A stretch of DNA of 64,000 nt from Methanothermococcus sp. Ax23 (lineage in GTDB: Archaea > AGJL01 > Methanococci > Methanococcales > Methanococcaceae). Under the pieces are notes generated by a model. It did no database searches. It worked only from the letters and a program-made list of their open reading frames with translations, and was not told the DNA's origin. This document shows, piece by piece, positions 259-59,219 of this stretch. The stretch lies in the NCBI RefSeq assembly GCF_049075655.1, contig NZ_CP157522.1:1088001-1152000 (forward strand), written 5' to 3'. The first letter of the stretch is position 1, and the number at the start of each line of letters is the position of its first letter. The translations under genes were made by a program, and so were the position numbers.

Positions 259-408
259 ATTAGACGAAAACTTCGGTTTTCGTTGCTATATGCTTATTCG
301 GAGCTCTGATTGAACTCCTTTGGATTTTGTAGCATCGAACCGAGGGTTCGAAATTAAAATTGTGAAGCAATTTTATATTCTACGCTCCTTCGGAGCTCCG
401 ATAACATA
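259..408 (+). repeat. Composite multi-hairpin element (ATTAGACG-type cassette plus CGGAGCTC-closed stem)
   Basis: attagacgaaaac-ttcg-gttttcgttgct matches the cassettes at 37374, in the MITE right ends and at 53640; 289-306 pairs with 393-408; internal hairpins tcgaacc/ggttcga and taaaattg/caatttta. Confidence 0.75.
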
Positions 409-458
409 AATTAACACCTTAATAAATATATTAATCAACAAATGGGAGAGGGTAAAAT

Positions 459-1139
459 ATGTGTGAAGAAGTATGTTGTATTGGAGAATACAGAATGCCA
501 TTAATAGGGGAGAAATTCCCTGAGGTAGAAGTTAAAACTACGCAAGGAGTTATAAAATTACCTAATCATTTTGAAGGTAAATGGTTTATTTTATTTAGCC
601 ATCCTGCGGACTTTACCCCAGTTTGCACCACAGAATTTGTAGCATTTCAAAAGAGATATGACCAATTTAAGGAGTTAAATGCCGAATTAATAGGTTTAAG
701 CATAGACCAGGTATTTAGTCATTTGAAATGGATTGAATGGATAAAAGATAATCTAGACGTTGACATTGAATTTCCAGTAATAGCAGATGATAGAGGGGAA
801 TTGGCTGAAAGATTAGGCATGGTAAGTCCATATAAGGGCAATAATACAGTTAGGGCAGTATTTGTTGTAGATGACAAGGGAGCAATTAGGGCAATATTGT
901 ATTATCCGCAAGAGGCTGGAAGAAATATCGATGAAATAATAAGATTGGTTAAAGCACTTCAAACATCCGATAAAGGAGTGGCACTTCCAGCGAACTGGCC
1001 TAACAATGATATAATCGGGGATAAGGTAATAGTTCCACCTGCTTCCACAGTTGAAGAAATGAATCAGAGAAAAGAAGCGGCTGAAAAAGGAGAAATAGAA
1101 TGCCTTGATTGGTGGCTTTGCTGTAAAAAATTAGAATAA
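459..1139 (+). CDS. Peroxiredoxin (archaeal Prx6/AhpC type)
   Basis: [15 protein letters not shown] peroxidatic motif; C-terminal CLDWWLC. Confidence 0.95.
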
Positions 1140-1165
1140 ATTATTCATATTTATTTTTTTGGTGA

Positions 1166-1411
1166 ATGAAAATGGTAGAAATTAAATTAGCTTGCAAATT
1201 AGATGACAGTTGTGAAAAACCAAAGTATAGGAAGTATAGGTGTAAAGTTTGCGGTTGGACATATGACCCGTTAAAAGGAGACCCTAGCCAAGACATTTCT
1301 CCAAAAACTCCATTTGAAGAGCTTCCGGACGATTGGATTTGTCCCATTTGCAGAGGTAAAGTTGGAAAAGAGTCCTTTGAGCCATTGGATGAATTAGTAG
1401 AATTTGACTGA
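1166..1411 (+). CDS. Rubredoxin
   Basis: KYRCKVCGWTYDP...PDDWICPIC. Confidence 0.9.
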   Translation: MKMVEIKLACKLDDSCEKPKYRKYRCKVCGWTYDPLKGDPSQDISPKTPFEELPDDWICPICRGKVGKESFEPLDELVEFD

Positions 1412-1419
1412 GGTAAAGT

Positions 1420-2007
1420 ATGAAAGAGACAATTACAAATTTAATAAAGGCATACATTGGGGAAAGCTTAGCTAGGAATAGATATACTTGCTATGCAAAA
1501 ATTGCAAAAAGTGAAGGATATGAACAGATTTCAGAGATATTTTTATTAACAGCAGAAAATGAAAGAGAGCATGCTAAATGGCTATTTTATTTAATCACCG
1601 AATTAAAAAAGAAATACAATGTTGATGAGGATTCAATAAAGGTAAATGATGTTGAAGTCCCTATTGTTTTAGGAAATACTGCTGAAAATTTAAGGGCTTC
1701 AATCGAAGGGGAACATTTTGAATATACTGAAATGTATCCAAAATTTGCCGAAATAGCAGAAAAAGAAGGATTAAACGACATTGCAGAAAGGCTGAGGGCA
1801 ATTGCAATTGCTGAAAAGCATCACGAGGGGAGATTTAAGAAATTGTTAAAAGAAGTTGAAAATGGAACAGTATTTAAGAAAGATGAATCTGTTGAGTGGG
1901 TTTGTAGGAAATGTGGCTACACTCACAAAGGGGATGAACCGCCAGAGGTGTGTCCATCTTGCAGCCATCCAGCGAAGTATTTTGAAATATTATGTGAAAA
2001 ATATTAA
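1420..2007 (+). CDS. rbr: Rubrerythrin
   Basis: GESLARNRY, ENEREHA, AEKHHE di-iron motifs; C-terminal CRKCG...CPSCSHP rubredoxin domain. Confidence 0.95.
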   Translation: MKETITNLIKAYIGESLARNRYTCYAKIAKSEGYEQISEIFLLTAENEREHAKWLFYLITELKKKYNVDEDSIKVNDVEVPIVLGNTAENLRASIEGEHFEYTEMYPKFAEIAEKEGLNDIAERLRAIAIAEKHHEGRFKKLLKEVENGTVFKKDESVEWVCRKCGYTHKGDEPPEVCPSCSHPAKYFEILCEKY

Positions 2008-2076
2008 TTGTAAATTAATATTTATTACCATATATGTAAATTAAAATTAAAATCAAAAATAAGGGGGCGATATATT

Positions 2077-2427
2077 ATGAAAAATGCATTTTTAGTATTT
2101 TCTTACATGCACAACGATAAGCCGAACATGCCAGTAATGTTGCATGTGTTGCTATTTGCAAAGGAGATGAAGGAAAAGGGGGATGATGTGAAAATAATAT
2201 TTGAAGGCGAAGGTGTTAATTGGGCTAAGGATTTGCTAAATGAAGAGCATCCATTTTCAAACCATGCTAAGCCCTTAATGGATAATTTTGTAGTTTGTGA
2301 AGCATGTGCAAGCATGTTTGGCATATTGGATGATGTAAAAGATAAACTAAATGTTGAAAATGACTTATTCGGGCATGTAAGTTTAAAGAAGTATTTAGAT
2401 GAAGGTTTTGATGTAATTAAATTTTAA
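2077..2427 (+). CDS. DsrE/DsrF-like protein
   Basis: IIFEGEGV and VCEACA motifs, 116 aa. Confidence 0.65.
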   Translation: MKNAFLVFSYMHNDKPNMPVMLHVLLFAKEMKEKGDDVKIIFEGEGVNWAKDLLNEEHPFSNHAKPLMDNFVVCEACASMFGILDDVKDKLNVENDLFGHVSLKKYLDEGFDVIKF

Positions 2428-2504
2428 TTAACATTTTGGCTGTTTAGCCAAAATTTTTTATTTTATTTTTATTTTAATTTTTATTAATACTGCGTGGTGA
2501 TTTC

Positions 2505-3092
2505 ATGACACTAAGTTCAAAAAACTTTAATCCTGAGATTCCTAAAAAAGTTATTGAAGCTGGAAAGGATATACTAGGAGAAGACCATGTAAAGTCATTC
2601 CAAAGATGCTACCAGTGCGGAACATGCACGGGGGCATGTCCAAGCAGTAGAATAACGGCTTTTAAAACTAGGAAATTAATAAGAATGATTCTCAGCGGTT
2701 TAGATGTTTTTGATAGTGAAGATATGTGGATGTGCACAACATGCTATGAATGCTATGAAAAATGTCCAAGAGAAGTTAAAATAACTGATATTATAAAAGC
2801 CGCAAGAAACGTGGCATGTCAAATGGGGTTAATAGCTGAGGCACATAGAAAAACAACATTGTATGTTTATTTAACAGGTCATGCTGTCCCAGTAAATGAC
2901 GAGATAAAAGAAGTAAGAAAAAAGATTGGATTAACTGAAATCCCCCCAACAACCCACAAATACCCTGAGGTTTTGGAGGATATAAGGGGACTTATGAATG
3001 ACTTAGAGCTCTGCGATAAGGTAGGAATTTGTCCAACAACAAAAAAATTAAAAGAGCTTAAACCTATGAGATGGGAAGATTTAAGCGAATAG
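2505..3092 (+). CDS. hdrC: CoB-CoM heterodisulfide reductase subunit C
   Basis: [13 protein letters not shown] and [13 protein letters not shown] 4Fe-4S motifs; TGHAVP. Confidence 0.9.
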
Positions 3093-4283: not shown

Positions 4284-4370
4284 GGACAATAAAATAAAAT
4301 TATATATTATATATAATATATAAAAAAATATATAATAACTGTAAATATTCAAAATAGGGAGGAGATAAAT

Positions 4371-4658
4371 ATGATAACAACAAACCACCCGTTATATGAA
4401 TCATTAAAGGATATTCAAGATTTTAAATTAAAATTGGCTGAATTCTTTAAAGATAAGGACGTATTTCCAATAAAGAGCAAAGTTGAGTTAGCAAATGCAT
4501 TGCCTTGTGGTTTATCATTGCCTTGTGGGGATATTGAAGCAGGGGAGTTAGTTAAATTAATGACTGATGCAGATTTTCCAATAAAAGACTACGAGGATTT
4601 GGCAATAAAGTTATCCAACAAATGTGTAATTGAAAAGAAGGAAAAAGAAGAAATGTAA
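4371..4658 (+). CDS. MTH865-family protein
   Basis: FPIKS.xELxxALPxG...AGELVKLMTDADFP pattern. Confidence 0.7.
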   Translation: MITTNHPLYESLKDIQDFKLKLAEFFKDKDVFPIKSKVELANALPCGLSLPCGDIEAGELVKLMTDADFPIKDYEDLAIKLSNKCVIEKKEKEEM

Positions 4659-4728
4659 TTAATATTTTTATTTTATTTTTTATATTATGGTTAATCCATT
4701 CTTTCGTATATTTAGATATGGTGAAATA

Positions 4729-5316: not shown

Positions 5317-5376
5317 GTAGATTAATATCATTATATATGAATTTTTATAAAAAATAAAATAAAAAAGTGTGGTTTC

Positions 5377-8312: not shown

Positions 8313-8313
8313 C

Positions 8314-9851: not shown

Positions 9852-11075
9852 ATGGATACAATCACGCTTATTCCAAAAAATAATATTGACATGCCAATTG
9901 AGGCTGATGTAATTTCCCCCGATGTTTTTGCAAATAAAACCCTTGATGAAATAAAATCATTGCTTGTTTGGCAGGGGAACACAAGAGTTCCTTTATCAGA
10001 ATTTTTTGAAATTAAAGGAGAGAATGTTCCTTCAAAAGAGCCCACCATTGTAATAGACGGAGATGTTAGCAAGGTAAAATATATCGGCTCAAAAATGAGC
10101 TCCGGTAAGATAGTAATAAATGGCAATGTTGGCATACAGTTGGGATATGAAATGAAAGGTGGAGAGATTATAGTAAATGGAGAGGCTGGCAGATTCGTAG
10201 GAAGTGAAATGAAAGGCGGTAAAATCCACATAAAAGGAAACGCAGGAGATTATATAGGCTGTGCATACCGAGGAGATTGGAGAGGAATGAGAGGAGGCAC
10301 AATAATCATTGAAGGAAATGCTGGAAACAACATTGGTGGAGGGGCTCTTAAAGGAGAAATAATTATAAAAGGAAATGTCGGTCAGTTCTGTGGTATCAAC
10401 CTGAGGGGTGGAAAAATCGTCATTGGTGGCGGTGCTGAAAGAAATGTTGGTGCTGAAATGATTAAAGGAGAGATTATAATTTGTGGAACTATTGATAAAT
10501 TCCACCCTGGTTTTGAATTAGTTGAAGAAGTGGATGGAAAGGAGCTCGGTTTGGATGGAACATTCCTTAAATTCACAGGGGATAACTCCATGAAAAAACC
10601 AAAAGGAGTTTTATATGCTTCAAAAGAACATAACAAGCATCTTATAGGATTAGAGTCCAGAACTGAAAATTATATAATCGGAAAAAACAAAATTGAGGCA
10701 GTATTTAACTCAGGAAGCACTATTGTGCAGGGTGCAATTATCAAAGGGGGAGACAAATTCACAAAAGAATATATTGAAGTGTGTGCAGTTTGCCACATCC
10801 ACCCTGATGATTACAACATATTGGGACAACCCCAAAAAGTTAGGATTTCAAGAAAAGGATATGGCGTGGTTGTGAGAGCTCTCCCTGATGATGACCTTCA
10901 AAGAGGTAATGTCTTTATACCAAGAAGTATTTGGGCAAATGTTGTGGCAGACCCATATACCGAGGGTTCTGGCTCTCCAAACTATAAGGGATGTAAAGTA
11001 ATTGTTGAACCTGCTTCTGATGATGAAAAAATACTGAGTGCAGAAGAGATATTGGAATCCTATGGGGTGAAATAA
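9852..11075 (+). CDS. fmdC: Formylmethanofuran dehydrogenase subunit C fused to subunit D
   Basis: GxxMxGGxIxIxG beta-helix repeats followed by an FwdD-like domain (NSGSTIVQG...FIPRSIWAN...GSPNYKG). Confidence 0.9.
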   Translation: MDTITLIPKNNIDMPIEADVISPDVFANKTLDEIKSLLVWQGNTRVPLSEFFEIKGENVPSKEPTIVIDGDVSKVKYIGSKMSSGKIVINGNVGIQLGYEMKGGEIIVNGEAGRFVGSEMKGGKIHIKGNAGDYIGCAYRGDWRGMRGGTIIIEGNAGNNIGGGALKGEIIIKGNVGQFCGINLRGGKIVIGGGAERNVGAEMIKGEIIICGTIDKFHPGFELVEEVDGKELGLDGTFLKFTGDNSMKKPKGVLYASKEHNKHLIGLESRTENYIIGKNKIEAVFNSGSTIVQGAIIKGGDKFTKEYIEVCAVCHIHPDDYNILGQPQKVRISRKGYGVVVRALPDDDLQRGNVFIPRSIWANVVADPYTEGSGSPNYKGCKVIVEPASDDEKILSAEEILESYGVK

Positions 11076-12436
11076 TGAAAGAAGTTTATAGAAGTCTTAT
11101 ATGTCCCGTCTGTGGCGGTGCATGTGATGATATTGAAGTAGAATTTGACTCTGAAAAGGAAGAAATAGTTGTTAAAAATGCCTGTAAAATGGGTGCGGCA
11201 AAATTTAAAGAGGTTTATAGTCATCACAGAATCAGAACTCCTCAGATAAAAAAAGATGGGAAATTTGAAAATGCAAGCTGGGATGAAGCTTTGGATAAAG
11301 CGGCTGAAATACTGGCAAATGCAAAAAGACCACTGTTTTTCATAGGAAGTGAAACATCGACAGAGGCGATGAGAGTTGGATTACACATGGCTGAGTATTT
11401 AAGGGGAGTGGCTGATTCAAACGCAACTATATGACACGGACCTACACTTATGGGAATTCAGGAATCCGGAATTTCTGGTTCCACAGCAGGAGAAGTAACA
11501 AATAGAGCAGACCTAGTGGTGTATTGGGGAACCAATCCAATGGACTCAATGCCTAGGCATCTGTCAAGATATGCGGTATATCCAAGAGGGTTTTTTAGAG
11601 AAAGGGGGAAACGAGATAGGTTTGTAGTTACAGTAGACCCGAGAAGAACAGCCACGGCAAAGGCATCTGACCTGTATATTCCTATAAAACCTAACTCCGA
11701 TTATGAAGCATTTGCGGCAATATTAACAATATTAAAAGGAAAGGAGCCACATCCTTCTGTGGAAGAAATCACAGGAATACCTATTGAAACCCTTAAAGAT
11801 TTGGCACATAAAATGACCACATGTCAGTTCGGAGCTCTCTACGGTGGATTGGGATTGCCTGCATCAAGAGGAAGGAACAGGAATATTGAAATGATTATGA
11901 AGGTAGTGGCTGAGATTAATAAATATACAAAATTCACCATAGGAGCAATTAGAGGACACTGTAATGTGGCAGGGTTCAACCAAATTGCATCCTGGATGTA
12001 TGGATTCCCATTTGGTGTGGATTTCCTGAGAGGATACCCAAGATTCAACCCAGGGGAAACTACAACAGTTGATTTATTACTCAACAAAGAAGTGGATGCC
12101 GTATTTGTAATGTGTGCTGATTTAGGAGCTCACCTGCCAAAAGAGTGTGTTGAGTATTTGAAAAATGACATTCCTGTGATTTGTGTAGATATAGCACCAT
12201 GTCCTACAACATCATTGGCTGATGTGGTGTTGCCGGGCGTAATTGATGCTATGGAGTGCGATGGAACATTTTACAGATTTGACAATATCCCTATCAACTA
12301 CAAGCCATTTACAAAATCTCCATTCCCATTCACAAAAAGCAACGAAGACACATTAAAACAGTTGTTTGAAAAAATAAAAGAAAAAGTAAATAACAATCCT
12401 GAAAGAACAGCGGATGATGTGAGAATAGAAGTTTAA
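11075..12436 (+). CDS. fmdB: Formylmethanofuran dehydrogenase subunit B, selenocysteine-containing (UGA at 11432-11434)
   Basis: The two track ORFs are in one frame joined by TGA: DSNATI-U-HGPTLMGIQ, the position of the metal-ligand Cys/Sec in FwdB/FmdB; CPVCGGACDD, RGHCNV; tRNA-Sec present in window. Confidence 0.92.
11521..11552 (+). promoter_or_regulatory. Candidate archaeal SECIS element inside fmdB CDS
   Basis: gtattggg-GAA-cca-atccaa-tgg-A-ctcaatgc: 8-bp stem (2 G-U), GAA/A internal loop, 3-bp apical stem; cctag/ctagg can extend the base. Confidence 0.6.
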
Positions 12437-13801: not shown

Positions 13802-14013
13802 ATGAATTACTCCACCTTATGGCTGAGTTGAATGAAAACCTTTCTTCATGCCCCTTATCCTTCGGACGAAGTTTCCCAACTCATAAGGAATACTAGCTCA
13901 GAGATTGCCCCCTTTTAGATGTTCAATTTTGTTTTTTCTGACCAACAAAACCCAAAGGATTTGTCGAAAATCCGAACTTGTGAGTTTTCATCTGGATATC
14001 ACAGGTTATAACC
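13802..14013 (-). other. Structured non-coding element, probably a degenerate IS200/IS605 right end/omegaRNA remnant
   Basis: GC-richer intergenic stretch with several stems; minus strand reads gagttgggaaacttcgtcc[43 nt]ataaggtggagtaattcat, resembling an IS605-type right end with an insertion. Confidence 0.4.
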
Positions 14014-16275: not shown

Positions 16276-17361
16276 ATGATGAATAAAATACATGAAAAGC
16301 AATTAAACGAAAATAAAATTAAAATATTGGATGAGGTAAAAAAACATTATAAAGAATACTTTATTTACGCCATTAAAAGAAAATGGTTGGAAATTCCTGA
16401 TGAGATACACCATAAAGAAATAGGTTTTGGATATTTAAAAAAGGTAGATAATAGGAATATATCCTTCGATTCTGAAAAAGAATATTTAAAATGGGTTTTG
16501 GAAAACGCTCCATTTCATTTATATAAATCTCTCTCATATATGGAACATCCTGATTTCATTGGCGGTGCTTCTCAAAAAAAGATATTAAAAAGAGAGATGG
16601 CATTTGATATTGATGTCCATAGGGTAAAAAAATGCACTCATGAGGACGATGGCTGGATTTGTAAATACTGTTTGGAGGAGGCAAAAAATCAAGCATTTAT
16701 ATTAATTGATGAATTTTTAATATCTGATTTTGGTCTATCAAAAAATGATTTAAAAATAGTTTTCAGTGGAAATAGAGGATATCATATTTACATAAAACCG
16801 CAGGATGAGGAGATAAAAAATACCATAGAACATTGGGATAGGTATCAAAGGCGATATTTTATAGAGTATATATTGGGAAAGAATTTAAATTTAAATTATG
16901 TTGGAAGCGGATGGAGTAGGAGAATATTAAATAATATAAAAAATAAGCAGATAAAAACCCAGTTGAGTAAAACCAAAAATTGGAAGCAAATAATTGATAA
17001 AAAAAATGAAAATGATAAAAATAAAATACTATCAATAATAGAAAATACCAAAAACAGATTGGAACTTGATGAAAAGGTTATGGAAGATGACATTAGATTG
17101 TTAAGAGTAATTGGTTCTTTACATGGATATACAGGATTTATTGTTAAAGAAATAAAATACAATTCATTGGAATATTTTAACCCTTTAAACCATGCAGTAT
17201 TTTCTAAATTCAATAAAGAATATTATAATGTAAAAATAAATCAAAAGATTGATTCATTGAGAATAAAGGATAAAACCTACACTACTCGGAGTAAGGAAAT
17301 CCCTGCAAGCATGTTATTGTTTTTATTTGGTCATGGCGTGGATTTTGAAATATTGGATTAA
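16276..17361 (+). CDS. priS: DNA primase catalytic (small) subunit
   Basis: REMAFDID, VFSGNRGYH, LDEKVMEDDIRLLRVIGSLHG. Confidence 0.93.
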   Translation: MMNKIHEKQLNENKIKILDEVKKHYKEYFIYAIKRKWLEIPDEIHHKEIGFGYLKKVDNRNISFDSEKEYLKWVLENAPFHLYKSLSYMEHPDFIGGASQKKILKREMAFDIDVHRVKKCTHEDDGWICKYCLEEAKNQAFILIDEFLISDFGLSKNDLKIVFSGNRGYHIYIKPQDEEIKNTIEHWDRYQRRYFIEYILGKNLNLNYVGSGWSRRILNNIKNKQIKTQLSKTKNWKQIIDKKNENDKNKILSIIENTKNRLELDEKVMEDDIRLLRVIGSLHGYTGFIVKEIKYNSLEYFNPLNHAVFSKFNKEYYNVKINQKIDSLRIKDKTYTTRSKEIPASMLLFLFGHGVDFEILD

Positions 17362-17387
17362 TCATAGAAATTTAAGTTAATTTTAAA

Positions 17388-18354
17388 CGCTCATGTTCTT
17401 ATATCGGTTGAAAGTAATATCGATAACCATGTCTGTTTATTATTTAGTTTCAATGCCAACAAGTCTAAATACCCCTGTAACCATCGGAAACTAACTCCTC
17501 GGTATTTACTCATATAACTTCTTAAAAAACTGTGTCTATTCTCACAGCTATTGACATGAACATCTCCACGGGCAAATTCTCGCTTGGAATGATTTACAAA
17601 ATCATGCCCTTTCACAGTATTATCTAAATATATAGGTAGGTTTTCATAGATAGAATATTCATCAGTATATATCTTTATTTTTCCATTAATACAATCCTTA
17701 AATCTGTTCTTGAATTTTTTAGGAAACTTTTTAAGATTTTCAAAAACTGTGAATTTAACTTCCTTAGATTTTCGAACTACTATTGTAATTATTGGAGGTT
17801 TTCCTGATTTTGCTGTTCCTCTCCCTCTTTTGTGAGAACTTCTTTTTTTAGGATTCTTTTTTTAAACCTTTATCTCCTGCATGGATGTAAATTTCATCCA
17901 TCTCTATAATATCTTCCAATGTAGGGGATAATTTACCAGATATTTTTTGAACCTCATGGACGAAGTTTAAAACTGCTTTGTAGTCCCTATCCAATTCCTC
18001 AGAAATCTCTTTTGTAGATTTATGAGGCATATTTGCCAAAATATACATCATTTCATTAACTGGAAATTTATGATGTTCAAATATGGTATTAGTTAGGTCA
18101 TTGAATAATTTTCCACAGCTTTTACATTTATATCTTTGAGATTTCTTTGAGTTAGAGCCGTATTTTAAAATCTCTTTACTATTACAGTATGGACAAGTTA
18201 TTCCATCTTTCCATTTAGCTTTCCTAATTACCTCATAACATTTCTCTATATCTGGTAGAAATAAATTCCTGATAATGTCTTTATTCTCTATCATGGTAAA
18301 TATTATATATTTGAGAATATATAAATATTACCAACTGGAATATACAGATGAGCG
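17388..18354 (-). mobile_element. IS1595-family (ISXO2/ISH4-like) insertion sequence, 967 bp
   Basis: Imperfect ~23-bp TIRs cgctcatgttcttatatcggttg / cgctcatctgtatattccagttg; perfect 8-bp TSD ATTTTAAA at 17380-17387 and 18355-18362. Confidence 0.93.
17391..18294 (-). CDS. IS1595-family DDE transposase in two frames joined at an A7 run
   Basis: Zn ribbon CPYC...CKSC, HTH, EMDEIY; after a +1 shift at T7 17857-17863 the frame continues open: RGRGT...IYTDEY...VNHS...VHVNSCENRHS. Confidence 0.85.
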
Positions 18355-20816: not shown

Positions 20817-21999
20817 GAAAAATTTTAATGAATTTGTGGAGTTTCCGAGCGTAAGCGAGGAAATGAGCAAATTCGAAGAATTTGTGCAATTTTTAAACTC
20901 AAATAATCCATCTGAGGTAATCGATAAGTTAAATTTAATAAATGAAATGGAGAAAAGTAATAAATGGGATAATAAAAGTAATAAAAGTAATAATAAAGAT
21001 AAAACTAATACTAACACTGAAAGTAATAAAAAATACATCACATACTCAAAAAATGTATTTATTCCATTGTGCAATTGGTGCAGGAATGTTTGTGGATACT
21101 GCACATTTAGAAATGAAAATTATAAATTGATGAATAAAAATGAGGTTAAAGAAATCCTTTTAAAAGGAGACAAATACGGCTGTAAAGAGGCATTATTTAC
21201 ATTTGGAGAAAATGTTGATGAAAACGAAAAAATAAGGGAAGATTTAAAAAAAATGGGATACAGTAGCATTTTAGAATATCTTTATGATTTGGAGGACTGG
21301 TGCCTTAATAATACTGAATTATTGCCCCATACAAACTGCGGGATACTGAATTATGAAGAACTAAAACTATTAAAAGAAGTTAATGCTTCCATGGGTCTTA
21401 TGCTTGAAAATTCAAGTGAAAGGCTTTTTAAAACCATCGCACATAAGGACAGCCCTGGAAAAGAGCCGAAAAAACGATTAAAAATGATTGAAAATGCTGG
21501 AAAATTAAAAATCCCATTTACAACAGGTATTTTAATTGGGATAGGTGAAACAAACGAGGAAATTGTTAAATCATTATATGACATTAAAAAACTTAATGAA
21601 GAATATGGGCATATTCAGGAGGTTATAATTCAGAATTTCAGGTCGAAAAAAGGCATACCTATGGAGGACTTTAAAGAGCCTTCTCCTTTAAAAATGTTGA
21701 AGGTTTTAATCGTGGCAAAATTAATATTAAACGATATATCCATACAAGTTCCTCCAAATCTAAATTCTGAAACTGGTCAGTTATTCTTATTTGCGGGTGT
21801 TGATGACTGGGGCGGAGTATCTCCATTAACAAAAGATTATGTAAATCCGGAAGCTCCATGGCCGGAGATTGAGGAGTTAAGGCGATATACTGAGGAATTT
21901 GGATATGTATTAAAAGAGAGATTGCCAGTTTATGAAAAATATATTAATAAAACATGGTTAAGTGATAAGGTGCTTGAAAAAATTTTATATAAAAAGTAA
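20809..21999 (+). CDS. cofG: FO synthase subunit 1 (radical SAM)
   Basis: [47 protein letters not shown]. Confidence 0.93.
20839..20886 (+). repeat. 48-nt in-frame hairpin insertion in cofG 5' region
   Basis: tttcc-gagcgtaagcga-ggaaa plus caaattc-gaa-gaatttg hairpins; 9-nt direct repeat gaatttgtg; similar to the reverse complement of 47570-47600. Confidence 0.6.
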
Positions 22000-35195: not shown

Positions 35196-35323
35196 TGTAT
35201 CACAAAATATATAATAATAAATAAAAACGGTAGTATGATGATAAAAAATAATAAAATATAAAAATATGGAGTATATGGACATATTTTTAAAATTTATACA
35301 TTATTTATGTTTTTTGAACTAAT

Positions 35324-36929: not shown

Positions 36930-37010
36930 ATTTATTGAATTTTAAATTATAAATTATTAAACTTATTTTTTTACGATAAACCGCCGAGAAAGCCAACGAT
37001 TTTAATCGTT

Positions 37011-37047
37011 ATACAAAACATAGTTTTGTAAAATCTCTTACGAGATT
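37011..37047 (+). repeat. 37-nt double-hairpin insert within the IS left-end hairpin
   Basis: tacaaaac-ata-gttttgta + aatctc-ttac-gagatt splits ccaacgattttaatcgtt|gg; present in all full copies. Confidence 0.7.
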
Positions 37048-37373
37048 GGATGAGAGGCGCACATCATTTTTTTTATATACTCCACTACATAATATATGAG
37101 TGTAATTAGAATAATAGCATATATATAAATTTGGTGAATTCCATGCAAGTAACCAGAGTGCTGACAATAAACCTAACCAGAAGTTTAAATAATGAACAAT
37201 TAATAATCATAAACCATTTAACCTATTCAGCATCAAAACTCTGGAATACATCCAACTACGAAGTAATACAGCGAAACATTAAACCAAATAAAATAGATGT
37301 TCAAATGAAGAACAACTTCTGGTTTAAAAACCTGCACTCACAGTCAGCACAGGCAGTATGTCAAAAACTTCAA

Positions 37374-37420
37374 ATTAGACGAAAACCTTCGGTTTTCGTT
37401 GCTCGCTTGCTACGCAAGCG
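37374..37420 (+). repeat. 47-nt double-hairpin cassette (frameshifting) in tnpB
   Basis: attagacgaaaacc-ttc-ggttttcgttgc-tcgcttgc-tac-gcaagcg. Confidence 0.85.
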
Positions 37421-37813
37421 ATTGCATGGCAAAACTACTTCAAACAACACACTAAAAGACCACGATACCAACCAAAAGATGGACACTTTCCCGTAAAATG
37501 GAAGAAGCAAGGTTTCAAAATCATAGGCAATAAGTTAAGATTATCCTTATCTAAACAAACTAAAAACTATCTCAAAGAGAAGCATGGTATCAAGTGCAGG
37601 TATCTATGGGTAGGGTTATCGAAAACTCTACCGCTTGATACCATGCAGGTTAAAGAAGTTGAGATAGTTCCGCAGACCATCTATGGGATAACCTACTACA
37701 TACTTCACTTAATCCATAAGAAACCAGTAATTCAAGAACCTATCAAAGAAGGTAATATATTAAGTATTGATTTAGGAATTAAGAATTTAGCAACAGCAAT
37801 AACAAACACAGGT

Positions 37814-37861
37814 ATCAGGCGAAAACCTTCGGTTTTCGCTACTCACCAACATCAGTTGGTG
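37814..37861 (+). repeat. 48-nt double-hairpin cassette (in frame) in tnpB
   Basis: atcaggcgaaaacc-ttc-ggttttcgctac-tcaccaac-atca-gttggtg; removal gives TNTG-KAVIYDG. Confidence 0.8.
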
Positions 37862-38550
37862 AAAGCAGTAATCTACGATGGAAGAAGGTTAATTTCTAAA
37901 TTCCGATGGTTTGCTAAAACAAAGGGGAAAATACAGTCTGCACTAACAAAACAGGAGTTAAAGAATAACAAAAGATTATCACACTTAACAGTAAAGGAGA
38001 AAAACTACACTAAGGATTATCTTCATAAGGTCAGTAAGATGATTGTTGATTTTGCAGTAGATAATAAAGTTTCAAGGATTGTAATCGGCGAGTTAAACAA
38101 AGGTATTTCAAATATTAATATTGGTAGAAAGAACAACGAGAAAATACACAAGATACCTTTTGGTAGGTTAGTAAGTATGATACAGTATAAAGCAGAGGAA
38201 AGGGGATTAACAGTAGAACAGGTTAATGAATCTTATACTTCTCAAACTTGTAGTAATTGTGGTGTGGTTAAAAAGAGTAATAGGAAGTATAGGGGTTTGT
38301 ATGTGTGTAGTGAGTGTGGTATGGTTTTGAATGCTGATATTAACGGGGCTTTGAATATTTTAAAAAAAGTATTTTCATGTAGCGTAGCCCTGAACCCGTT
38401 AATGGGTAGGGGTAGTGGGCTTGGCAACCCATGTAGGGTTAGACCCTGCTAAAGAACCCCACGATTTTAATCGTGGGAGTATGTCAGGTTATTAAAAATT
38501 TAAATAAAAATTTAGATAATTTATAACATGCTGAATTATCGGTGAAAAAA

Positions 38551-43822: not shown

Positions 43823-44540
43823 TATTATGGATAAACTACAAACTGTAAGAAAAATAGTCCAGTCGGCATTTTTTATAAAATTTGTAATCTTATCAGCCGT
43901 TCTTTCAAGCTTCTTCTGCCTGTGCATTTTTGGATATATTGAGCAATTCATATTGATGGGGAGTATTTATTTCGTTCCCGTTGTGGTTGTAATATCCTTG
44001 CTCACAATAATTTTTGGAAGAGTATTTTGCGGTTGGATGTGTCCATTGGGTTTTATTTTTGATTTAACATATAAGTTAAGAGTTAAGTTATCAGGGTTAA
44101 AAAAACTTCCAGAAGTTCCAAAAAACATCCACAATAAATTAAAATACTTAAAATATGTTATGTTGGTGTTATTCATTATATTAACATACCATTTTACAAC
44201 ATACGCCTATTGTTCAGTATGTCCTATCGGAGCTCTCACAAACTTATCTGGAACTCTAATTTCATTTGCCATTCTCGTCGGATTTATAGTATTGGGGTTC
44301 ATATATCCCATGGCATTTTGCAGATATTTCTGTCCAATAGGGGCATTACTTGGGCTACTTTCTATAAAACCCATATTTAAATTGAAATTAAATGATAAAT
44401 GTGTAAAATGTAGAATGTGCGAAAGAAAATGTCCAATGCAGATAGAGCTTACTGAAAAAATAGAACAGCATGAATGTATAAGATGCTTTGAATGTATAAG
44501 TTCATGTAGGAAAAAAGGAGTTGATTTTACCTTTAACTGA
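43806..44540 (+). CDS. Membrane 4Fe-4S protein (NapH/MauN-like)
   Basis: GRVFCGWMCPLG, CSVCPIG, FCRYFCPIG, two CxxCxxCxxxC; stop codon supplied by MITE end. Confidence 0.85.
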   Translation: MNFLSDIMDKLQTVRKIVQSAFFIKFVILSAVLSSFFCLCIFGYIEQFILMGSIYFVPVVVVISLLTIIFGRVFCGWMCPLGFIFDLTYKLRVKLSGLKKLPEVPKNIHNKLKYLKYVMLVLFIILTYHFTTYAYCSVCPIGALTNLSGTLISFAILVGFIVLGFIYPMAFCRYFCPIGALLGLLSIKPIFKLKLNDKCVKCRMCERKCPMQIELTEKIEQHECIRCFECISSCRKKGVDFTFN

Positions 44541-44908
44541 CCTACTCCAACGAGTGAACTCGTTGGGTTCTCGCTTACGGTAGTAAGCGAGCAACGAAAT
44601 CACGAAGTGATTTCGTCTAATTTTAGTAGGGTTTAACCCTACACGGGTGGCCAAGCCCACTACCCCTACCCATTAATGGGTTCAGGGCTACGCTATGCAC
44701 TTCCAACCACTACCAGCGGTAGAGTTTTCACTAACCCCACCCATAGATACTTGGACTGGTAGCGTTACTTACTACTAATCTTCATATATTTATATTTTAC
44801 TACTTACTAGCCGATATAATGTCCGCCTCTCATCCAATCTCGTAAGAGATTTTACAAAACTATGTTTTGTATAACGACTGAAGTCGTTGGCTTTCCCGGC
44901 GGTTTATC
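44537..44908 (-). mobile_element. Non-autonomous IS605-derived element (MITE/PATE) copy A, 372 bp
   Basis: Same TTTAC|GATAAACC left end and TCAG right end as the tnpB element; no ORF. Confidence 0.92.
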
Positions 44909-46251: not shown

Positions 46252-46568
46252 ACTATCACATTTTATATTATTTAGGATAATAATATAATATTTTATTTTA
46301 AAATGGTGGTATTATGGAAGTGTATTATTCGATAATAGATAATTATGATTCATTAGATAATAATGTAGAGATACTAAATAAAACCTTCGAATCCATTAAT
46401 TTAAATGAATTTGATAAAATACTTATAAAGCCAAATGTTTTAGGACCTTATCCACCAAATAGATGTGCAACAACTCATCCAAAATTTTTAGAGTGGATTT
46501 TGAAATATTTGATTGATACTAAGAACATAGACGCCAATAAAATCATTGTAGGGGACTCATCGGGATAT

Positions 46569-46626
46569 CGAAGCGAATTCTATTGAATTCGCTGACTTAC
46601 GAAAACTCTTCGAGTTTTCGTCAAGT
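46569..46626 (-). repeat. 58-nt double-hairpin cassette (frameshifting)
   Basis: Sister of 33796-33852; removal gives GDSSGY-STKKSF. Confidence 0.85.
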
Positions 46627-47160
46627 TCTACAAAAAAATCCTTTGAAGTATCTGAGCTCAGAAAAGCATGTGAAAAATACAATGTAAAGCATCTTTCATT
46701 TGAAAACGATGAAGTTATAAAAACAAAAATACTAAATAGTGAAATAACACTTCCAAAAACCGTTGTAGATAGTGATTTGATAATAAATCTCCCAAAATTA
46801 AAAACCCACATACTTATGAAATACACTGGGGCAGTTAAAAACCTATATGGATGTATTCCCGGTGGATTGAAGCCAAAACTTCATGGTGTCTATCCAAAGG
46901 AAAATGATTTTGCAAAGTTATTGGTAGAGCTCCACAACACCATAATAAAAGATAAAGAAACAATTACCATAATGGATGGAATCTATGGGATGGAAGGAAA
47001 TGGACCAAGCAATGGAAAACCTATAAATTCAAAAATAGTAATTGCCTCAAAAAGTTCTGTTGCTGTTGATTTATTTGCATCCTATTACATAGGATACAAT
47101 CCCAACGATATTTTAACATATAGGTTTTTAGATGATGGTGTTGAGTATGAACTCATACAT

Positions 47161-47536
47161 CTGACCTACTCCAACGAGTGAACTCGTTGGGTTCTCGCTT
47201 ACGGTAGTAAGCGAGCAACGAAATCACGAAGTGATTTCGTCTAATTTTAGTAGGGTTTAACCCTACACGGGTGGCCAAGCCCACTACCCCTATCTCCGTT
47301 TAGGAGATTCAGGGCTACCTTTTGAATTTCCAAACACTACCAGCGGTAGAGTTTTCGATAACCCTACCCATAGATACTTGGACTGGTAGCGTTACTTACT
47401 ACTAATCTTCACATATTTATATTTTACTACTTACTAGCCGATATAATGTCCCGCCTCTCATCCAATCTCATAAGAGATTTTACAAAACTATGTTTTGTAT
47501 AACGATTAAAATCGTTGGCTTTCTCGGCGGTTTATC
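47161..47536 (-). mobile_element. IS605-derived MITE copy B, 376 bp
   Basis: Nearly identical to copy C (one difference seen); empty site restores ELIH-VNNNK in frame. Confidence 0.93.
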
Positions 47537-47570
47537 GTAAATAACAATAAAACCGAAAAAATCTCAAAAT

Positions 47571-47599
47571 TACGATTTCCTTCGCTTCGCTCGGAAATG
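47571..47599 (-). repeat. GAGCGAAGCGA-loop hairpin (REP-like)
   Basis: Minus strand atttcc-gagcgaagcgaa-ggaaat; related to the cofG insert. Confidence 0.5.
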
Positions 47600-47890
47600 G
47601 ATTTAAACAATATCAATAGGATGAAATTTAAAAAGCCAGATACATTTTATTTAATCTCCATATTTCCTCCAAAGATTGTAAAGCTGATATTTTCAATCAT
47701 GGTTCAGAAACCGAAAATAAATAAGAGAAAATGTAGGAAATGTAAAATCTGTGAGTATGTGTGCCCAGTCAATGCTATATCAATAGATAATTTGAAAATA
47801 GATTCAAAAAAATGTATAAATTGCTATTGCTGTCATGAAATGTGCGGATTTGATGCCATCGATTTAAGAAGTAGGTTTTGGGTGAATTAG

Positions 47891-52424: not shown

Positions 52425-52445
52425 TAATATGGAAACGGCGATAGC

Positions 52446-53772: not shown

Positions 53773-53857
53773 CTGACCTACTCCAACGGGTGAACTCGTT
53801 GGGTTCTCGCTTACGGTAGTAAGCGAGCAACGAAATCACGAAGTGATTTCGTCTAAT
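53773..53857 (-). mobile_element. Isolated MITE right end (cassette + RE hairpin + TCAG)
   Basis: Matches the last ~85 nt of MITEs A-C; begins exactly at the cassette start. Confidence 0.85.
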
Positions 53858-53977: not shown

Positions 53978-55444
53978 TTATGCATTTTTGGATTTCCATT
54001 CATTCAATATTTTTTCCCAGTTGTTCTTCAAGAAATCACCCACCTGTGAGGAATCCCTTGTTCCAACTACGCATGTCCACCCAGTTTTTTCTTCAATATC
54101 TCCTCTTGCAGGAGCTGCCAATCCTGGGAGTATTATTATCTTATGATTTACCTTTTCCGCTACACCGGTTTCTTCTATAAGGTTCTTAGCATTTTCACCG
54201 CAGTATTGACCACCAGCAACTGCAACATCCACCGCTTTACCTTCTGTATCCATCGATAAGAGCCAGCATTTAACACCATCTTTCTCAAAGTCTCCTGTTA
54301 CCGTGTAGAATGTTAATGAGAAGTTCGTAGTCATAATTACAGGGCTGTTTTCATCTGGGTTTCCTATTGGATATAATCCAGGTTCAACTGCCTGAGGTTT
54401 TCTTGGGTCGGTATATATTGCCTGTCTAAGTGTAAGTATTGGCATTAATTCCCATACCTCAGTTCCATGGAGAATCATTACATCGGCATACCTATTCAAC
54501 ATTGCATTTGCCGTTCTGGCTTCCATAACTCCTGCGGCTTTGTCAGGTTCTTCTATAAATTGATTTATTGGATTATTTCCATTTAAAACATACATATAGG
54601 TGTTTATTGGGAGTCCCAATATTGGGTATCCCAATAATTTATCCCCTCGTTCTATTGCACTTCTTCTTATCATTACAAACTTATCAAGTGTTTCTGCAAT
54701 GTTTTCAGGTGTTGTGTGAGGGTCTAAAACCAAATCTTCAATACTATACTTAACGCATTCCTTAGCCATGCCCTTTAATGTTTTTATATCATCTGAGGAT
54801 AAAACTAGTGCAAACTCCTTTCCAGCTTCTTTCTTTGCTATCAGCATTTTAAGGAGCTCTGCAAAGTTATCCTTTGTAGCTGCATAAATCATAGGTTTTG
54901 ATTTAACAACATCCAAAGCTTTTTCTATATTATCGGGATTAAGTGAGCATAATGCAATAGGCAACTTTGTAGCTTCCTGAACAATCTCAACTGCCTTTTT
55001 AAACTTTTCAGGGTCATTAGATGCGTTCCTTATGGCAACGAAATCCAATTTTAATTTTTCCCCAGTTCTTTCAAATACAAAATCCTCAACATATTTTGCC
55101 CTGCTTTTTATTTCCTCTTCTGATAAATTATCTGATATATCTACACCAAGGGGAGTCTGGTTGAAAAATGAGAGCTCATACCTATACATTACCTCGTCTC
55201 CACCCATGACACATTTTTTATCTGAATGACCAAACCAAACTTCCTTTACAGGTGGGGATAGCATCTCTATAAGTTTCTTTTTATTTTTTTCAAATTTTGG
55301 CGTGTTCATTATAGGGCAGTGTTCAACCATTGCCTTTTTATTCTGCAATTTTGTTGCAAAAGCCATACAGGAAGATTCGCCACATTTTTTACAATTCGTT
55401 TTTGGTAGGAGTTTATAAATATCCATAGCACTTACTTTTGCCAT
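53978..55444 (-). CDS. cdhE: ACDS complex gamma subunit (corrinoid Fe-S large subunit)
   Basis: LPKTNCKKCGESSCMAFA, YTDPRKP, TTNFSLT. Confidence 0.95.
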   Translation of the reverse strand: MAKVSAMDIYKLLPKTNCKKCGESSCMAFATKLQNKKAMVEHCPIMNTPKFEKNKKKLIEMLSPPVKEVWFGHSDKKCVMGGDEVMYRYELSFFNQTPLGVDISDNLSEEEIKSRAKYVEDFVFERTGEKLKLDFVAIRNASNDPEKFKKAVEIVQEATKLPIALCSLNPDNIEKALDVVKSKPMIYAATKDNFAELLKMLIAKKEAGKEFALVLSSDDIKTLKGMAKECVKYSIEDLVLDPHTTPENIAETLDKFVMIRRSAIERGDKLLGYPILGLPINTYMYVLNGNNPINQFIEEPDKAAGVMEARTANAMLNRYADVMILHGTEVWELMPILTLRQAIYTDPRKPQAVEPGLYPIGNPDENSPVIMTTNFSLTFYTVTGDFEKDGVKCWLLSMDTEGKAVDVAVAGGQYCGENAKNLIEETGVAEKVNHKIIILPGLAAPARGDIEEKTGWTCVVGTRDSSQVGDFLKNNWEKILNEWKSKNA

Positions 55445-55562
55445 TATTATCACCAATAAATAGATATGGAGTAATATAATGAGTAATAGATGATAGATAA
55501 ATTAAATGAACAATTAATAATAAATGAATAAGCTGGAAATATGGGGGTAATAAATAATAATA

Positions 55563-56753: not shown

Positions 56754-57015
56754 ATAATCACCGAAAAATCTATCATTATAAATCATTACAAATTAATAGA
56801 TATTCTAAAAAAAGTTATATATAAATCTTTTGAATGAGGCGATATCATAAAGCTTAAAATAAGCTATTAAAGATTAATTAAAGATATATTTCTCAATTAT
56901 AAACATTTTTTTAAGTATTATAGAATAGAAAAAGATATATATTAGAAATTATAATGGTTAAAAGGAGCCGTAAAATAATTATGGTTGAATAATATAAATA
57001 GTAATACTATAATGT

Positions 57016-57104
57016 GGCGCGGGGTGCTGTGCCTGGTGGCACAGGGCGGACTTCAGATCCGTCAAGTTCGTTTGAACTCGGGGTTCGATTCCCCCCCAGC
57101 GCCG
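57016..57104 (+). tRNA. selC: tRNA-Sec (anticodon UCA at 57053-57055)
   Basis: Long acceptor stem, long D stem ctgtgcc/ggcacag, gcgga-cttcaga-tccgt anticodon arm, long variable arm, 4-bp T stem with GGTTCGATTCC; T-run downstream; no encoded CCA. Confidence 0.96.
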
Positions 57105-57149
57105 TTTTTTATATATGTCTATTTTATTTTCCAGTGTTTGAGGGGAATT

Positions 57150-58103
57150 ATGAAAAAAATATATTCCAAAACTGGTGATTTATCAGATTTTAAAAATGCC
57201 ATTTCTTTTTTGCAAGACTTTACTGGATTTATAAAAATAGATAATGGAATGTTATTTTATATTGATTCAAAACTAACGTTCTCAATCTGGGGTGGAAAGA
57301 AATCTGACTTAAAAACAATATTGAAAAACCTACCTGATATATTTTCAATTGAAATATATAAATGTTCAAATGAAGACATTAAAAAAGTTATAGATAGTGA
57401 ATTAAATAGTAATTCCACACCAACTGCCTCAAAACCTGAGCTCCTAAATGAAATATATGGGTCAATATCATCTAATGTAAAACCAGACGTAAATGCTGAA
57501 AATGGCATTTCAATAAACCTATATACAAATATATATAATTATGTGGGAATAGGATTATACGAAGTAATTTTAATACCGAAAAGATACAAATCCGATAAAG
57601 GAACATTGATATTCAAAAACTGTGATGAACTATTTGCCATATATGAGTCGAAAAATAAAACACTTGAAGGAAAAAAAGCACTTGGAAAAATAAAAACTGT
57701 GTTTGCAGTTAGTGAAATTACCGCATTTATTAAGAAAATACCCCTTAACACATTTAATAGTTATGTGGAAAAATACTCCAATGCTCTTTTAAAAACTCAA
57801 GTATCATTTGAGGAATTAATTAAAAAAATAAAAGAAAAAGGAACTAAAATAATTAAAAATGATTCATTGGTAAATGTTTTAACAGAAAAACCCTCATTAA
57901 TAGAAATCGATAAAAATATGTATATTGTATCCAACGAAAAAAAACCTGTTTATGCATTTTTTGAAGACTATGATGGAGATAAAGCATACAGATATATTAA
58001 AAATTTCTGCATTTTTAACGATATCGAAATTAAAATATACCCTCTTGATAACGATGAGTTTAAGTTGTTCAAAGAATTTCAAGAAAATAGAATAAAACAG
58101 TAG
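57150..58103 (+). CDS. DUF2226-like conserved Methanococcales protein
   Basis: ATG 57150 after GAGGGG RBS; FTGFIKI, YDGDKAYR; the track's N-terminal extension overlaps tRNA-Sec and is spurious. Confidence 0.65.
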   Translation: MKKIYSKTGDLSDFKNAISFLQDFTGFIKIDNGMLFYIDSKLTFSIWGGKKSDLKTILKNLPDIFSIEIYKCSNEDIKKVIDSELNSNSTPTASKPELLNEIYGSISSNVKPDVNAENGISINLYTNIYNYVGIGLYEVILIPKRYKSDKGTLIFKNCDELFAIYESKNKTLEGKKALGKIKTVFAVSEITAFIKKIPLNTFNSYVEKYSNALLKTQVSFEELIKKIKEKGTKIIKNDSLVNVLTEKPSLIEIDKNMYIVSNEKKPVYAFFEDYDGDKAYRYIKNFCIFNDIEIKIYPLDNDEFKLFKEFQENRIKQ

Positions 58104-58160
58104 AACGATAAATAAAACGCAATATAAGCAGTAGTAAATAAGTAGTATGTAATATCTAAT

Positions 58161-58748
58161 TTATTTTGAATCTTTGAATATATTCTTCATATAGTATTTA
58201 CTATATAGAGTTCCCCCCGGATTATGTGCTAAAATTCTATCCTTAACTAAAAATGTTGTTGCAGGGGCTCTTGAATATTTTTGAAATAATATGTCATGTC
58301 CAATACACAGACCTACAATAATGTTTAAATCTGTCTCTTTTTCATTTAAAATTTCAGCCTGAGCTATGGGATTGCACATGGATTCTCTATTGTTGGGATT
58401 TATTTTTGTTAGGTTGAGCTTATCCTTATCAATTCCGCAAACTTTGCAACATACGGAGTATGTTTTAAAATAGTTTGATAAAATCTTATCCAAAGTTTTT
58501 GCTTCATTTTCCAATCCAATACAGAAAACTATTCCAATTTTTTTACATTCCATCAATTTACAAAATTCTATAATCTCTTCCAATCTGTTCTTTTTCATAT
58601 AGTAAGTTCCTTCAATGTATGATGAAACTGTTGCTATTTTTAAATTTTCATCTTTTTTATATTCTTTCATGACCTTTTCGCTAATTTCTTTTTTACAGCA
58701 GTTTTTTCCATCTGCACATAATTTTTTATCGCATACTGCACATTTCAT
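58161..58748 (-). CDS. DUF1847-family metal-binding protein
   Basis: KIGIVFCIGL, VCCKVCG, MCNPIAQA, GLCIGHD, VKDRILAHNP. Confidence 0.85.
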   Translation of the reverse strand: MKCAVCDKKLCADGKNCCKKEISEKVMKEYKKDENLKIATVSSYIEGTYYMKKNRLEEIIEFCKLMECKKIGIVFCIGLENEAKTLDKILSNYFKTYSVCCKVCGIDKDKLNLTKINPNNRESMCNPIAQAEILNEKETDLNIIVGLCIGHDILFQKYSRAPATTFLVKDRILAHNPGGTLYSKYYMKNIFKDSK

Positions 58749-58843
58749 TGTTTTACCTTTCTTTATTATATGTTTGTTTAAATATATTTATACATCCATT
58801 ACTTTGAAAATAAACTTATCAACAATTAAAAACTAGATTTTAC

Positions 58844-59219
58844 GATAAACCGCCGAGAAAGCCAACGATTTTAATCGTTATACAAAACATAGTTTTGTAA
58901 AATCTCTTACGAGATTGGATGAGAGGCGGGACATTATATCGGCTAGTAAGTAGTAAAATATAAATATGTGAAGATTAGTAGTAAGTAACGCTACCAGTCC
59001 AAGTATCTATGGGTAGGGTTATCGAAAACTCTACCGCTGGTAGTGTTTGGAAATTCAAAAGGTAGCCCTGAATCTCCTAAACGGAGATAGGGGTAGTGGG
59101 CTTGGCCACCCGTGTAGGGTTAAACCCTACTAAAATTAGACGAAATCACTTCGTGATTTCGTTGCTCGCTTACTACCGTAAGCGAGAACCCAACGAGTTC
59201 ACTCGTTGGAGTAGGTCAG
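58844..59219 (+). mobile_element. IS605-derived MITE copy C, 376 bp
   Basis: TTTAC|GATAAACC...GGTCAG; intergenic. Confidence 0.93.
58987..59219 (+). ncRNA. Putative omegaRNA-like transcript within the MITE (also in copies A and B)
   Basis: TATAAATA at 58959-58966 about 20 nt upstream; covarying stems shared with tnpB mid-gene and tnpB 3' end. Confidence 0.55.

Follow-up and report, generated by a model that had tools for sequence, protein, structure and literature searches.

Small palindromic repeats that behave as selfish DNA and that also enter open reading frames (ORFs) are a kind of element already known, represented by the RPE sequences, the MJRE repeats, the tagged REPs and the hairpin elements of organelles; how the smallest of these spread (REPs without RAYT, RPEs and the organellar elements) is an old open question. 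Here we describe a family of double-hairpin cassettes in a 64,000-nucleotide (nt) stretch of the archaeon Methanothermococcus sp. Ax23 (contig NZ_CP157522.1, positions 1,088,001 to 1,152,000 of the forward strand), termed ‘the window’ below, and conclude that they are probably copies of a non-autonomous, ultra-short (45–58 nt) mobile DNA element of the Methanococcales. The closest described systems in build are the double-hairpin elements (DHE) of fungal mitochondria (Paquin, Laforest and Lang 2000, as presented in PMC10085805 and PMC2800124), which, in those accounts, are very short, consist of two adjacent hairpins, lie both between and within genes without a flanking duplication, and were judged to be mobile from their presence or absence between relatives. 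They differ in being G+C-rich and in residing in the mitochondrial genomes of chytrids and fission yeasts, and a sequence relationship with the cassettes is neither expected nor seen. The resemblance is thus one of plan and not of membership, homology and an organellar setting both being absent. Nearer in host are MJRE1-3 of Methanocaldococcus jannaschii, palindromic repeats with coding potential (Suyama, Lathe and Bork 2005, as summarized in the citing papers PMC2229807 and PMC2996958), while RPEs and CGTC-tagged REPs have been described from five bacterial phyla (Di Nocera et al. 2013; PMC3733652), in an article where ‘Archaea’ was met only in two reference titles (its supplementary species lists being outside the scope). 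What is new here is the ~50-nt double-hairpin plan in an archaeon, the signs of very recent movement, and the repeated hits in TnpB genes together with an insertion beside the right-end guide of an insertion sequence (IS). No account of this family in Methanothermococcus came up in a search of the literature that extended neither to most subscription journals nor to supplementary files.

The forward strand of a cassette is taken as the one on which the tagged hairpin 1 stands first; C1–C10 denote the ten window copies, and L005, L008, L010 and L014 are cassettes in the contigs of relatives. The window contains ten copies of one family as defined by the pattern CGAAA-N6-14-TTTCG (mean 0.28 and largest count 2 in 100 shuffles), and the same ten were recovered by nhmmer and by a covariance model with filters off (86,664 bases; model E ≤ 1.2e-6), neither of which found further cassettes above noise in the window. 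Each copy starts, read forward, with a tag of 5–6 nt, A-(T/C)-(T/C)-(A/T)-G-(A/G), in the forms ATTAGA, ACTTGA or ATCAGG; this is followed by hairpin 1 (8–10 pairs in total), whose foot, (A)CGAAA/TTTCG(T), is invariant and whose upper stem varies, by a linker of 2–5 nt (commonest TG or TGC), and by hairpin 2, which is complete and perfect, with 7–9 pairs, in 10 of the 14 copies from the window and relatives. The cassettes do not have inverted termini. The motif GACG, CGTC on the other strand, is kept in 13 of 14 copies (C3 has GGCG), and its CG lies within the hairpin-1 stem. A preliminary description of this DNA had listed these copies and their shared plan, and both were borne out, each copy lying at, or a few bases from, the position given there. 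Its assumption that all listed copies carry a second hairpin holds for C2–C5 and C7–C10; C1 (near 259) and C6 (near 53640) are without a proper hairpin 2, the far arm being missing. The ten copies represent seven independent insertion events, since the four borne by transposable elements of the miniature inverted-repeat type (MITEs), C7–C10, are one insertion spread by MITE transposition.

When folded as single-stranded DNA (ssDNA), C2, C3, C4, C5 and C10 each form exactly two perfect hairpins (z −5.4 to −9.0), and none of 200 shuffles folds as well. In a model-fitted alignment of 11 distinct rows, 98.1% of the 103 hairpin-1 cells are paired, as against at most 53% in slid controls; four of the ten pairs are altered on both sides, and the covariation score is reached by 0 of 500 shuffles, so that stems do covary with structure kept, as had been claimed. 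Hairpin 2 also varies in sequence, and eight different stems (drawn from C2, C3, C4, C5, C7–C10, L008, L010 and L014) are each perfectly paired with their own partner: CTCGCTTAC, TCGCTTAC, TCGCTTGC, TCACTTAC, TCACCAAC, AGCGAATCC, AGCGAATTC and TCGAAGC. Two differences separate the sister copies C4 and C5: a compensated C-G to T-A change in hairpin 2, and an inverted hairpin-1 loop, TTC in C4 and GAA in C5. This flip, which the preliminary description had also noticed between 33796 and 46569, is a single case that would be explained more simply by an inversion or a template switch than by three substitutions.

Evidence for movement comes from filled and empty sites in protein-coding genes. C4 (33796–33852, minus strand) is a 57-nt copy lying in frame and in sense in a P-type ATPase gene (32487–35282, minus strand), and the 19 residues that it adds to the protein fall between the N and P domains. 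The 19-residue segment is found in four of nine aligned orthologs (the window protein and three metagenomic alleles) and is absent from five, namely those of Methanothermococcus okinawensis, Methanotorris igneus, Methanocaldococcus sp. 16A and Methanococcus aeolicus, and allele P0005. At a second site in this gene the window is empty (34589/34590, minus strand; EKEK|TPLQ), and four of the nine orthologs (P0001, P0002, P0003 and P0005) carry a 15-residue cassette-like insert, IRQKTSSFATRSSDS, whose start, IRQKTSSFAT, matches the C3 peptide IRRKPSVFAT at seven of the first ten residues. P0001 and P0002 are 99% identical to the window ATPase, yet filled at site 2, and P0005 is 85% identical; presence of a cassette-like insert thus varies between alleles that are 99% identical. 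P0001–P0003 carry both inserts, P0005 the site-2 insert only. The N-terminal two thirds of P0003 match the window allele and the C-terminal third matches the P0005 type, reflecting either inter-strain recombination or an assembly chimera.

Two further copies lie in the tnpB gene of a resident IS. C2 (37374–37420, plus strand; 47 nt) causes a frameshift, and its removal fuses two frames into a full-length TnpB (CQKLQ then being joined to IAWQNYFK); its boundary is ambiguous by 3 nt, with ATT on both sides. C3 (37814–37861, plus strand; 48 nt) is in frame (IRRKPSVFATHQHQLV) directly after the RuvC-I IDLG motif, and its 16 residues are found only in the window copy among 15 aligned TnpB homologs, the 14 without them including three paralogs from the same genome. 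Two other homologs (P0124 and P0129) have a 17-residue cassette-like insert at another site, and P0132 has an insert of ~16 residues (..TKTEGFRCS..) near the C2 site that matches cassette frame 2. C5 (46569–46626, minus strand; 58 nt), the sister of C4, lies antisense in a DUF362-Fer4 gene and produces a +1 frameshift; across its 58 nt, the alignment of GDSS-x-x|(S/N)T-x-KSFE in homologs P0241 and P0242 shows zero residues lost or gained, and Pfam positions 1–44 precede it and 50–198 follow it. The region 46314–47890 reads as a single DUF362-Fer4 gene cut both by C5 and by a MITE (MITE2, below), to which homologs of ~370 residues align in three pieces and three frames.

Across the five sites with an empty comparator (C2, C3, C4, C5 and the MITE right end) junctions are seamless and without target-site duplication, the only repeat being a single A at four sites and ATT at C2; any junction duplication is therefore at most 1–3 nt, and the cassettes are block insertions at unrelated A-rich sites in either orientation. 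This agrees with the earlier claims that clean removal restores host frames (in the ATPase, TnpB and DUF362-Fer4 comparisons) and that sharp-ended mobile cassettes enter genes and IS605-type elements; the possibility named there, that orthologs carry the segments as ancestral sequence, does not hold for the ATPase (5 of 9 without) or TnpB (14 of 15 without). In-frame copies within conserved ORFs, absent from orthologs (C4 and site 2 in the ATPase; C3 and two sites in TnpB), are also a feature of the RPE and MJRE kind. Copies in frame in tolerant protein loops persist as extra peptides and others break genes. The lengths of 47, 48, 57 and 58 nt reported before were confirmed; the accompanying suggestion of a length rule, by which copies of 3n length sit in frame and others break genes, reduces to arithmetic, with four genic copies in the window, and those inserts that annotated proteins reveal are skewed to the ones lying in frame. 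Selfish DNA thus directly creates protein insertions of 15–19 residues in archaea, and the broken tnpB and DUF362-Fer4 genes, along with ORFs that start directly after a cassette, are a warning for annotation.

The host IS (36975–38487, plus strand) is a TnpB-only member of the IS200/IS605 family with IS608-like ends. It follows the target TTTAC (36970–36974) and ends in GAAC-hairpin-AGTATGTCAG; the guide AAAG stands directly 5' of the left hairpin, TTAC ~18–19 nt 5' of that hairpin, and on the right the guide, hairpin and cut site are arranged as GAAC-hairpin-AGTATG-TCAG, the cut at TCAG falling 10 nt 3' of the hairpin foot. Judged by its ends, it is a textbook IS608 relative that follows the target, guide and cut-site rules set out for IS608 (in the sections consulted of PMC3201880). 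Between the two elements the guide and the cut site covary at their final bases, C/G here and T/A in IS608. The IS608 right guide is GAAT (a string of which no occurrence was found in PMC3201880). Three MITEs derived from the IS, MITE1 (44537–44908, minus strand), MITE2 (47161–47536, minus strand, between the DUF362 and Fer4 parts of the gene above) and MITE3 (58844–59219, plus strand), likewise follow TTTAC and carry C8 (44570–44621), C9 (47194–47245) and C10 (59135–59186), respectively. The right ends of IS and MITEs differ by one 51-nt block, the cassette, which lies directly 5' of the guide GAAC. C7 (53773–53857, minus strand) consists of a cassette (53806–53857) and a complete minimal MITE right end (guide, hairpin and TCAG; 53773–53805) with no MITE body; its left breakpoint is exactly the cassette 5' end, which suggests that this end was a site of breakage and joining. 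MITE1 also shows a compensated change in its left-end hairpin, AACGAT/ATCGTT to AACGAC/GTCGTT. Three of the seven independent events fall in the ~4% of the window made up of IS605-type elements; the concentration in such elements reported earlier is thus present, but it is nominal, and the insertion tolerance of selfish DNA explains it no less well than targeting would. An insert at 37011 had also been described as similarly built. Its double hairpin is present in all four IS and MITE left ends, has no empty comparator and gives no match to the cassette models; with no evidence for insertion, it was rejected as a cassette.

The family reaches beyond this genome. A scan of species-representative genomes (a collection outside which the source genome lies) with the narrow pattern TTAGACGAAA-N8-11-TTTCGYTRCT, too narrow for estimating copy number, gave 17 loci, four of which have the cassette build, all on Methanococcales-type contigs: L005 in Methanocaldococcus sp. 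28A, L010 in a Methanothermococcus metagenome-assembled genome (MAG), L014 in a Methanocaldococcaceae MAG, and L008, a perfect cassette on a contig of 35% G+C (JASGMZ010000002.1) binned in a Bacteroidales MAG. The L008 contig is probably mis-binned, rather than a transfer to bacteria, because it encodes a CTP synthase that shares 86% identity with those of Methanotorris and Methanothermococcus. The other 13 loci were discarded as chance matches in bacteria, with 5–7 outer pairs and no second hairpin. Length differences of PyrG among Methanococcales were also set aside, being a variable linker that is not cassette-like, and a plasmid collection yielded no cassette match, only one 20-nt chance match. 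The relatives' loci hold one copy per 3–8 kb sequence each; the window holds ten in 64 kb, from which it follows that the family has expanded in this lineage.

Against this background the comparison with known repeats can be drawn more closely. As the citing papers present them, MJRE also belong to Methanococcales and are small, folding, non-coding repeats, mostly extragenic, with a few in ORFs that they do not destroy; cassettes in turn occur on contigs of the MJRE host genus type (L005 and L014). By description only, the cassettes are set apart by their length of 45–58 nt, their two separate hairpins and their polymorphism between near-identical alleles. MJRE reportedly number 141 copies of ~100 nt each (14.3 kb in total), and their low identity is said to have been taken as a sign of old origin. 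Were they the same family, the novelty would shrink to new activity data for a known one, and this is the main threat to it. RPEs and CGTC-tagged REPs, as portrayed in the article cited above, resemble the cassettes in being short stem-loops with a conserved end tetranucleotide (the cassette GACG being CGTC on the other strand) and 8–9 bp stems that start with A-T pairs, in adding residues when within genes, and in that no dedicated transposase has been found. They differ in their 4–5 nt loops, CCA-like tail and usual head-to-head dimers of like units, whereas in the cassettes the tag's CG takes part in the stem, most loops have 3 nt, and an unlike second hairpin follows in tandem. In REP/REPIN-RAYT systems, tag and hairpin are recognized as ssDNA, and populations of these non-autonomous elements evolve while retaining their structure; a REPIN is made of two copies of one REP in inverted orientation, lies mostly outside genes and is accompanied by a RAYT gene flanked by REPs. 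The cassettes are alike in tag plus hairpin, kept structure and lack of autonomy, but their two hairpins are unlike and in tandem, and no RAYT gene or REP-flanked arrangement was found among the 73 window ORFs scanned, a subset of the 116 ORFs of at least 80 aa whose remaining 43 members are shadow ORFs overlapping longer ones.

How the cassettes move can be addressed only tentatively. The reading favoured here is of an ssDNA-hairpin element mobilized in trans, and it is possible, though less likely than not, that an HUH-type enzyme does this: the cassette would move as a folded single strand, handled by a nuclease or transposase that recognizes structure (HUH/Y1 or RAYT-like) and whose gene lies elsewhere in the genome. 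Stems would stay perfect because copies unable to form the hairpins do not propagate, perhaps with a contribution from hairpin-templated correction, one step of which could also explain the TTC-to-GAA loop flip. Several observations weigh against movement of this kind or against the mobile reading more generally. The 73 ORFs contain no candidate mobilizing enzyme, with no TnpA and no Y1, RAYT, GIY-YIG or reverse-transcriptase domain among them, so that the co-occurring HUH or GIY-YIG gene flanked by cassettes, which the preliminary description proposed to look for, did not appear among them. The left boundary lies 5 nt from the hairpin foot, as compared with ~19 nt in IS608, and the right boundary 0–3 nt from the hairpin-2 foot; the last four flank bases differ from site to site (AATT, TCAA, AGGT, TCAA, TAGA, CAAC, TTAT and TAAA), with no common 5' tetranucleotide among eight window or MITE sites and four relatives' loci; no strand bias is visible in the window (three independent events forward, four reverse); and the pair counts given above come from the model-fitted alignment, which includes one opposite-strand palindromic echo row of C5. 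At ATPase site 2, precise loss cannot be told apart from recurrent gain, and allele replacement by recombination, P0003 looking recombinant, could mimic excision. An IS608-type target rule predicted from the 4 nt before the hairpin foot was also tried and dropped, as it fits only one of nine ATTAG-type flanks. What stands of the earlier proposal of an ssDNA hairpin mini-element moved by an HUH/Y1 enzyme is the mobile double-hairpin family; the enzyme is not established and there is no IS608 geometry.

A rival reading, unlikely in our view, would make the cassettes the smallest derivatives (PATE or MITE type) of the resident IS608-like element, moved by its TnpA. That family was recently active in the genome, MITE1 and MITE2 being 100% identical over 132 nt, and since the MITEs are near-identical its TnpA would have been active too; IS608 and the cassettes are alike in their lack of target duplication, asymmetric ends, subterminal hairpins and precise junctions, the hairpin-1 foot on the reverse strand (CAACGA...TCGT) matches IS hairpins (CCAACGAT...ATCGTT), and in C7 a cassette 5' end abuts a complete minimal IS right end, as though the two had acted as a pair. 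C7 is, however, a single case that could be a deletion remnant. Direct mobilization by the resident TnpA is a minority reading because geometry, target tetranucleotide and hairpin sequences all differ: boundary-to-foot distances of 5 nt and 0–3 nt stand against ~18–19 nt and 10 nt in the IS (the 19-nt and 10-nt geometry of IS608), no fixed tetra- or pentanucleotide such as TTAC precedes the cassettes as it does IS200/IS605 insertions, and hairpin 2 is unlike both hairpin 1 and the IS hairpins (cassette ACGAAATCAC.. and CTCGCTTAC.., IS CCAACGAT.. and CCCACGAT..), only a foot of 4–6 nt being common to both rather than the parental hairpins a PATE would carry. The main alternative named to cut-and-paste, also improbable and a shade more so, is copy-in primed on microhomology from an RNA or ssDNA template. 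At all five sites with a defined empty state the first base of the element (A; ATT in C2) is also the first base after it, but a single A is weak evidence at 68% A+T; two or three intergenic copies (C1 and C6; L005 decayed) keep tag and hairpin 1 and lose the far end, yet ordinary decay is expected between genes; and the RNA intermediate suggested for the duplication-free double-hairpin elements of Allomyces mitochondria, in the account of PMC2800124, has no reverse-transcriptase domain in the scanned ORFs to set beside it. It is no more than possible, and as doubtful as mobilization by an HUH-type enzyme, that the cassettes are a prokaryotic counterpart of the mitochondrial DHE: such elements would form a distinct ~50-nt transposon class, still active in Methanothermococcus, served by an enzyme that is neither an IS608-type TnpA nor a classical RAYT, with hairpin-templated copying keeping the stems perfect and leaving the loop flip as its trace, and would be a steady source of new archaeal surface loops and of insertions in TnpB genes and beside the MITE right-end guide.

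Two readings that dispense with damage or with mobility altogether are highly improbable. If frame-breaking copies were excised from mRNA, as bulge-helix-bulge introns or by another RNA route, the host genes would still work; tnpB is intact apart from the 47-nt C2, and for two or more paralogs in the same genome the annotated start lies directly after the C2 site, which suggests an IS lineage that spreads while carrying C2. Transposition does not require TnpB, so the spread of a broken tnpB needs no splicing. A bulge-helix-bulge motif places each boundary in a 3-nt bulge, with a 4-bp helix between the two, whereas RNA folds of C2 and C5 with 20-nt flanks give only the two internal hairpins, no flank helix, and at the boundaries no two 3-nt bulges spaced by four pairs, and an archaeal intron of this type accordingly finds no support in either; C5 is moreover antisense to its gene, and the DUF362-Fer4 gene is cut by a MITE as well. 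Equally remote is the idea that the segments never moved and are ancestral sequence, or hairpins formed in place by template switching. Template switching can create or perfect local palindromes and would explain the loop flip, but the same 11-nt tag-plus-foot, linker and often hairpin 2 recur at unrelated loci in at least three genera, and orthologs or paralogs of the ATPase, TnpB and DUF362-Fer4 proteins are without the segments at exact codon boundaries. As mobile elements, the cassettes are a good test case for the spread of minimal palindromes: their ends are defined to 1–3 nt, near-identical strains provide both filled and empty alleles, cultivable and genetically tractable relatives belong to the host order, and the same genome holds a well-understood ssDNA transposon for comparison.

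The two copies with incomplete ends are both intergenic. C1 (259–287, plus strand), upstream of a peroxiredoxin gene, consists of the tag ATTAG, hairpin 1 (264–283, TTCG loop) and TTGCT, with hairpin 2 missing or replaced; 3' of it, the intergenic stretch 290–405 is dense in small hairpins, none of the cassette family, including TCGAACCGAGGGTTCGA at 335–351, TAAAATTG..CAATTTTA at 355–375 and GCTCCTTCGGAGC near 390. C6 (53634–53676, minus strand) has the tag, hairpin 1 with a TTA loop and CTGCTCGCTTCC, the 3' arm of hairpin 2 being missing.

Beyond the ten copies, the best model match is 13941–13969 (minus strand; 14.7 bits, E 0.07), within 13937–13993, where GACAAATCC-TTTG-GGTTTTGTTGGTC resembles a degenerate tag, hairpin 1 and linker (E 0.07–0.11). 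At the N-terminus of a radical-SAM gene (20836–20891) adjacent small palindromes, TTTCC..GGAAA around GAGCGTAAGCGAG and then CAAATTC-GAA-GAATTTG, score a weak 12 bits with the covariance model and may be a decayed cassette; 13941–13969 and 20866–20891, both on the minus strand, are weak and unproven candidates and were not accepted as further or decayed copies. A motif similar to the radical-SAM palindrome, TTTCC-TTCGCTTCGCTC-GGAAA, occurs at 47568–47595, and two overlapping 17-nt palindromes, TATTGGGAGTCCCAATA and TATTGGGTATCCCAATA, lie in a cdhD-like gene at 54605–54636.

The window as a whole has a G+C content of ~32%, and its genes include those for tRNA-Sec, formylmethanofuran dehydrogenase, CO dehydrogenase/acetyl-CoA synthase and hydrogenase maturation, a content that by itself places it in an archaeon of the Methanococcales. 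Its lowest G+C (27.7%) is found at 16276–18294, where one ORF has a weak primase small-subunit match and another has IS1595/InsA-type zinc-ribbon domains; this region may belong to an integrated element. A molybdopterin-oxidoreductase gene (11075–12436) of the formylmethanofuran dehydrogenase cluster appears as two in-frame ORFs split by a TGA at 11432–11434, which looks like a selenocysteine codon given the tRNA-Sec gene at 57016–57103.

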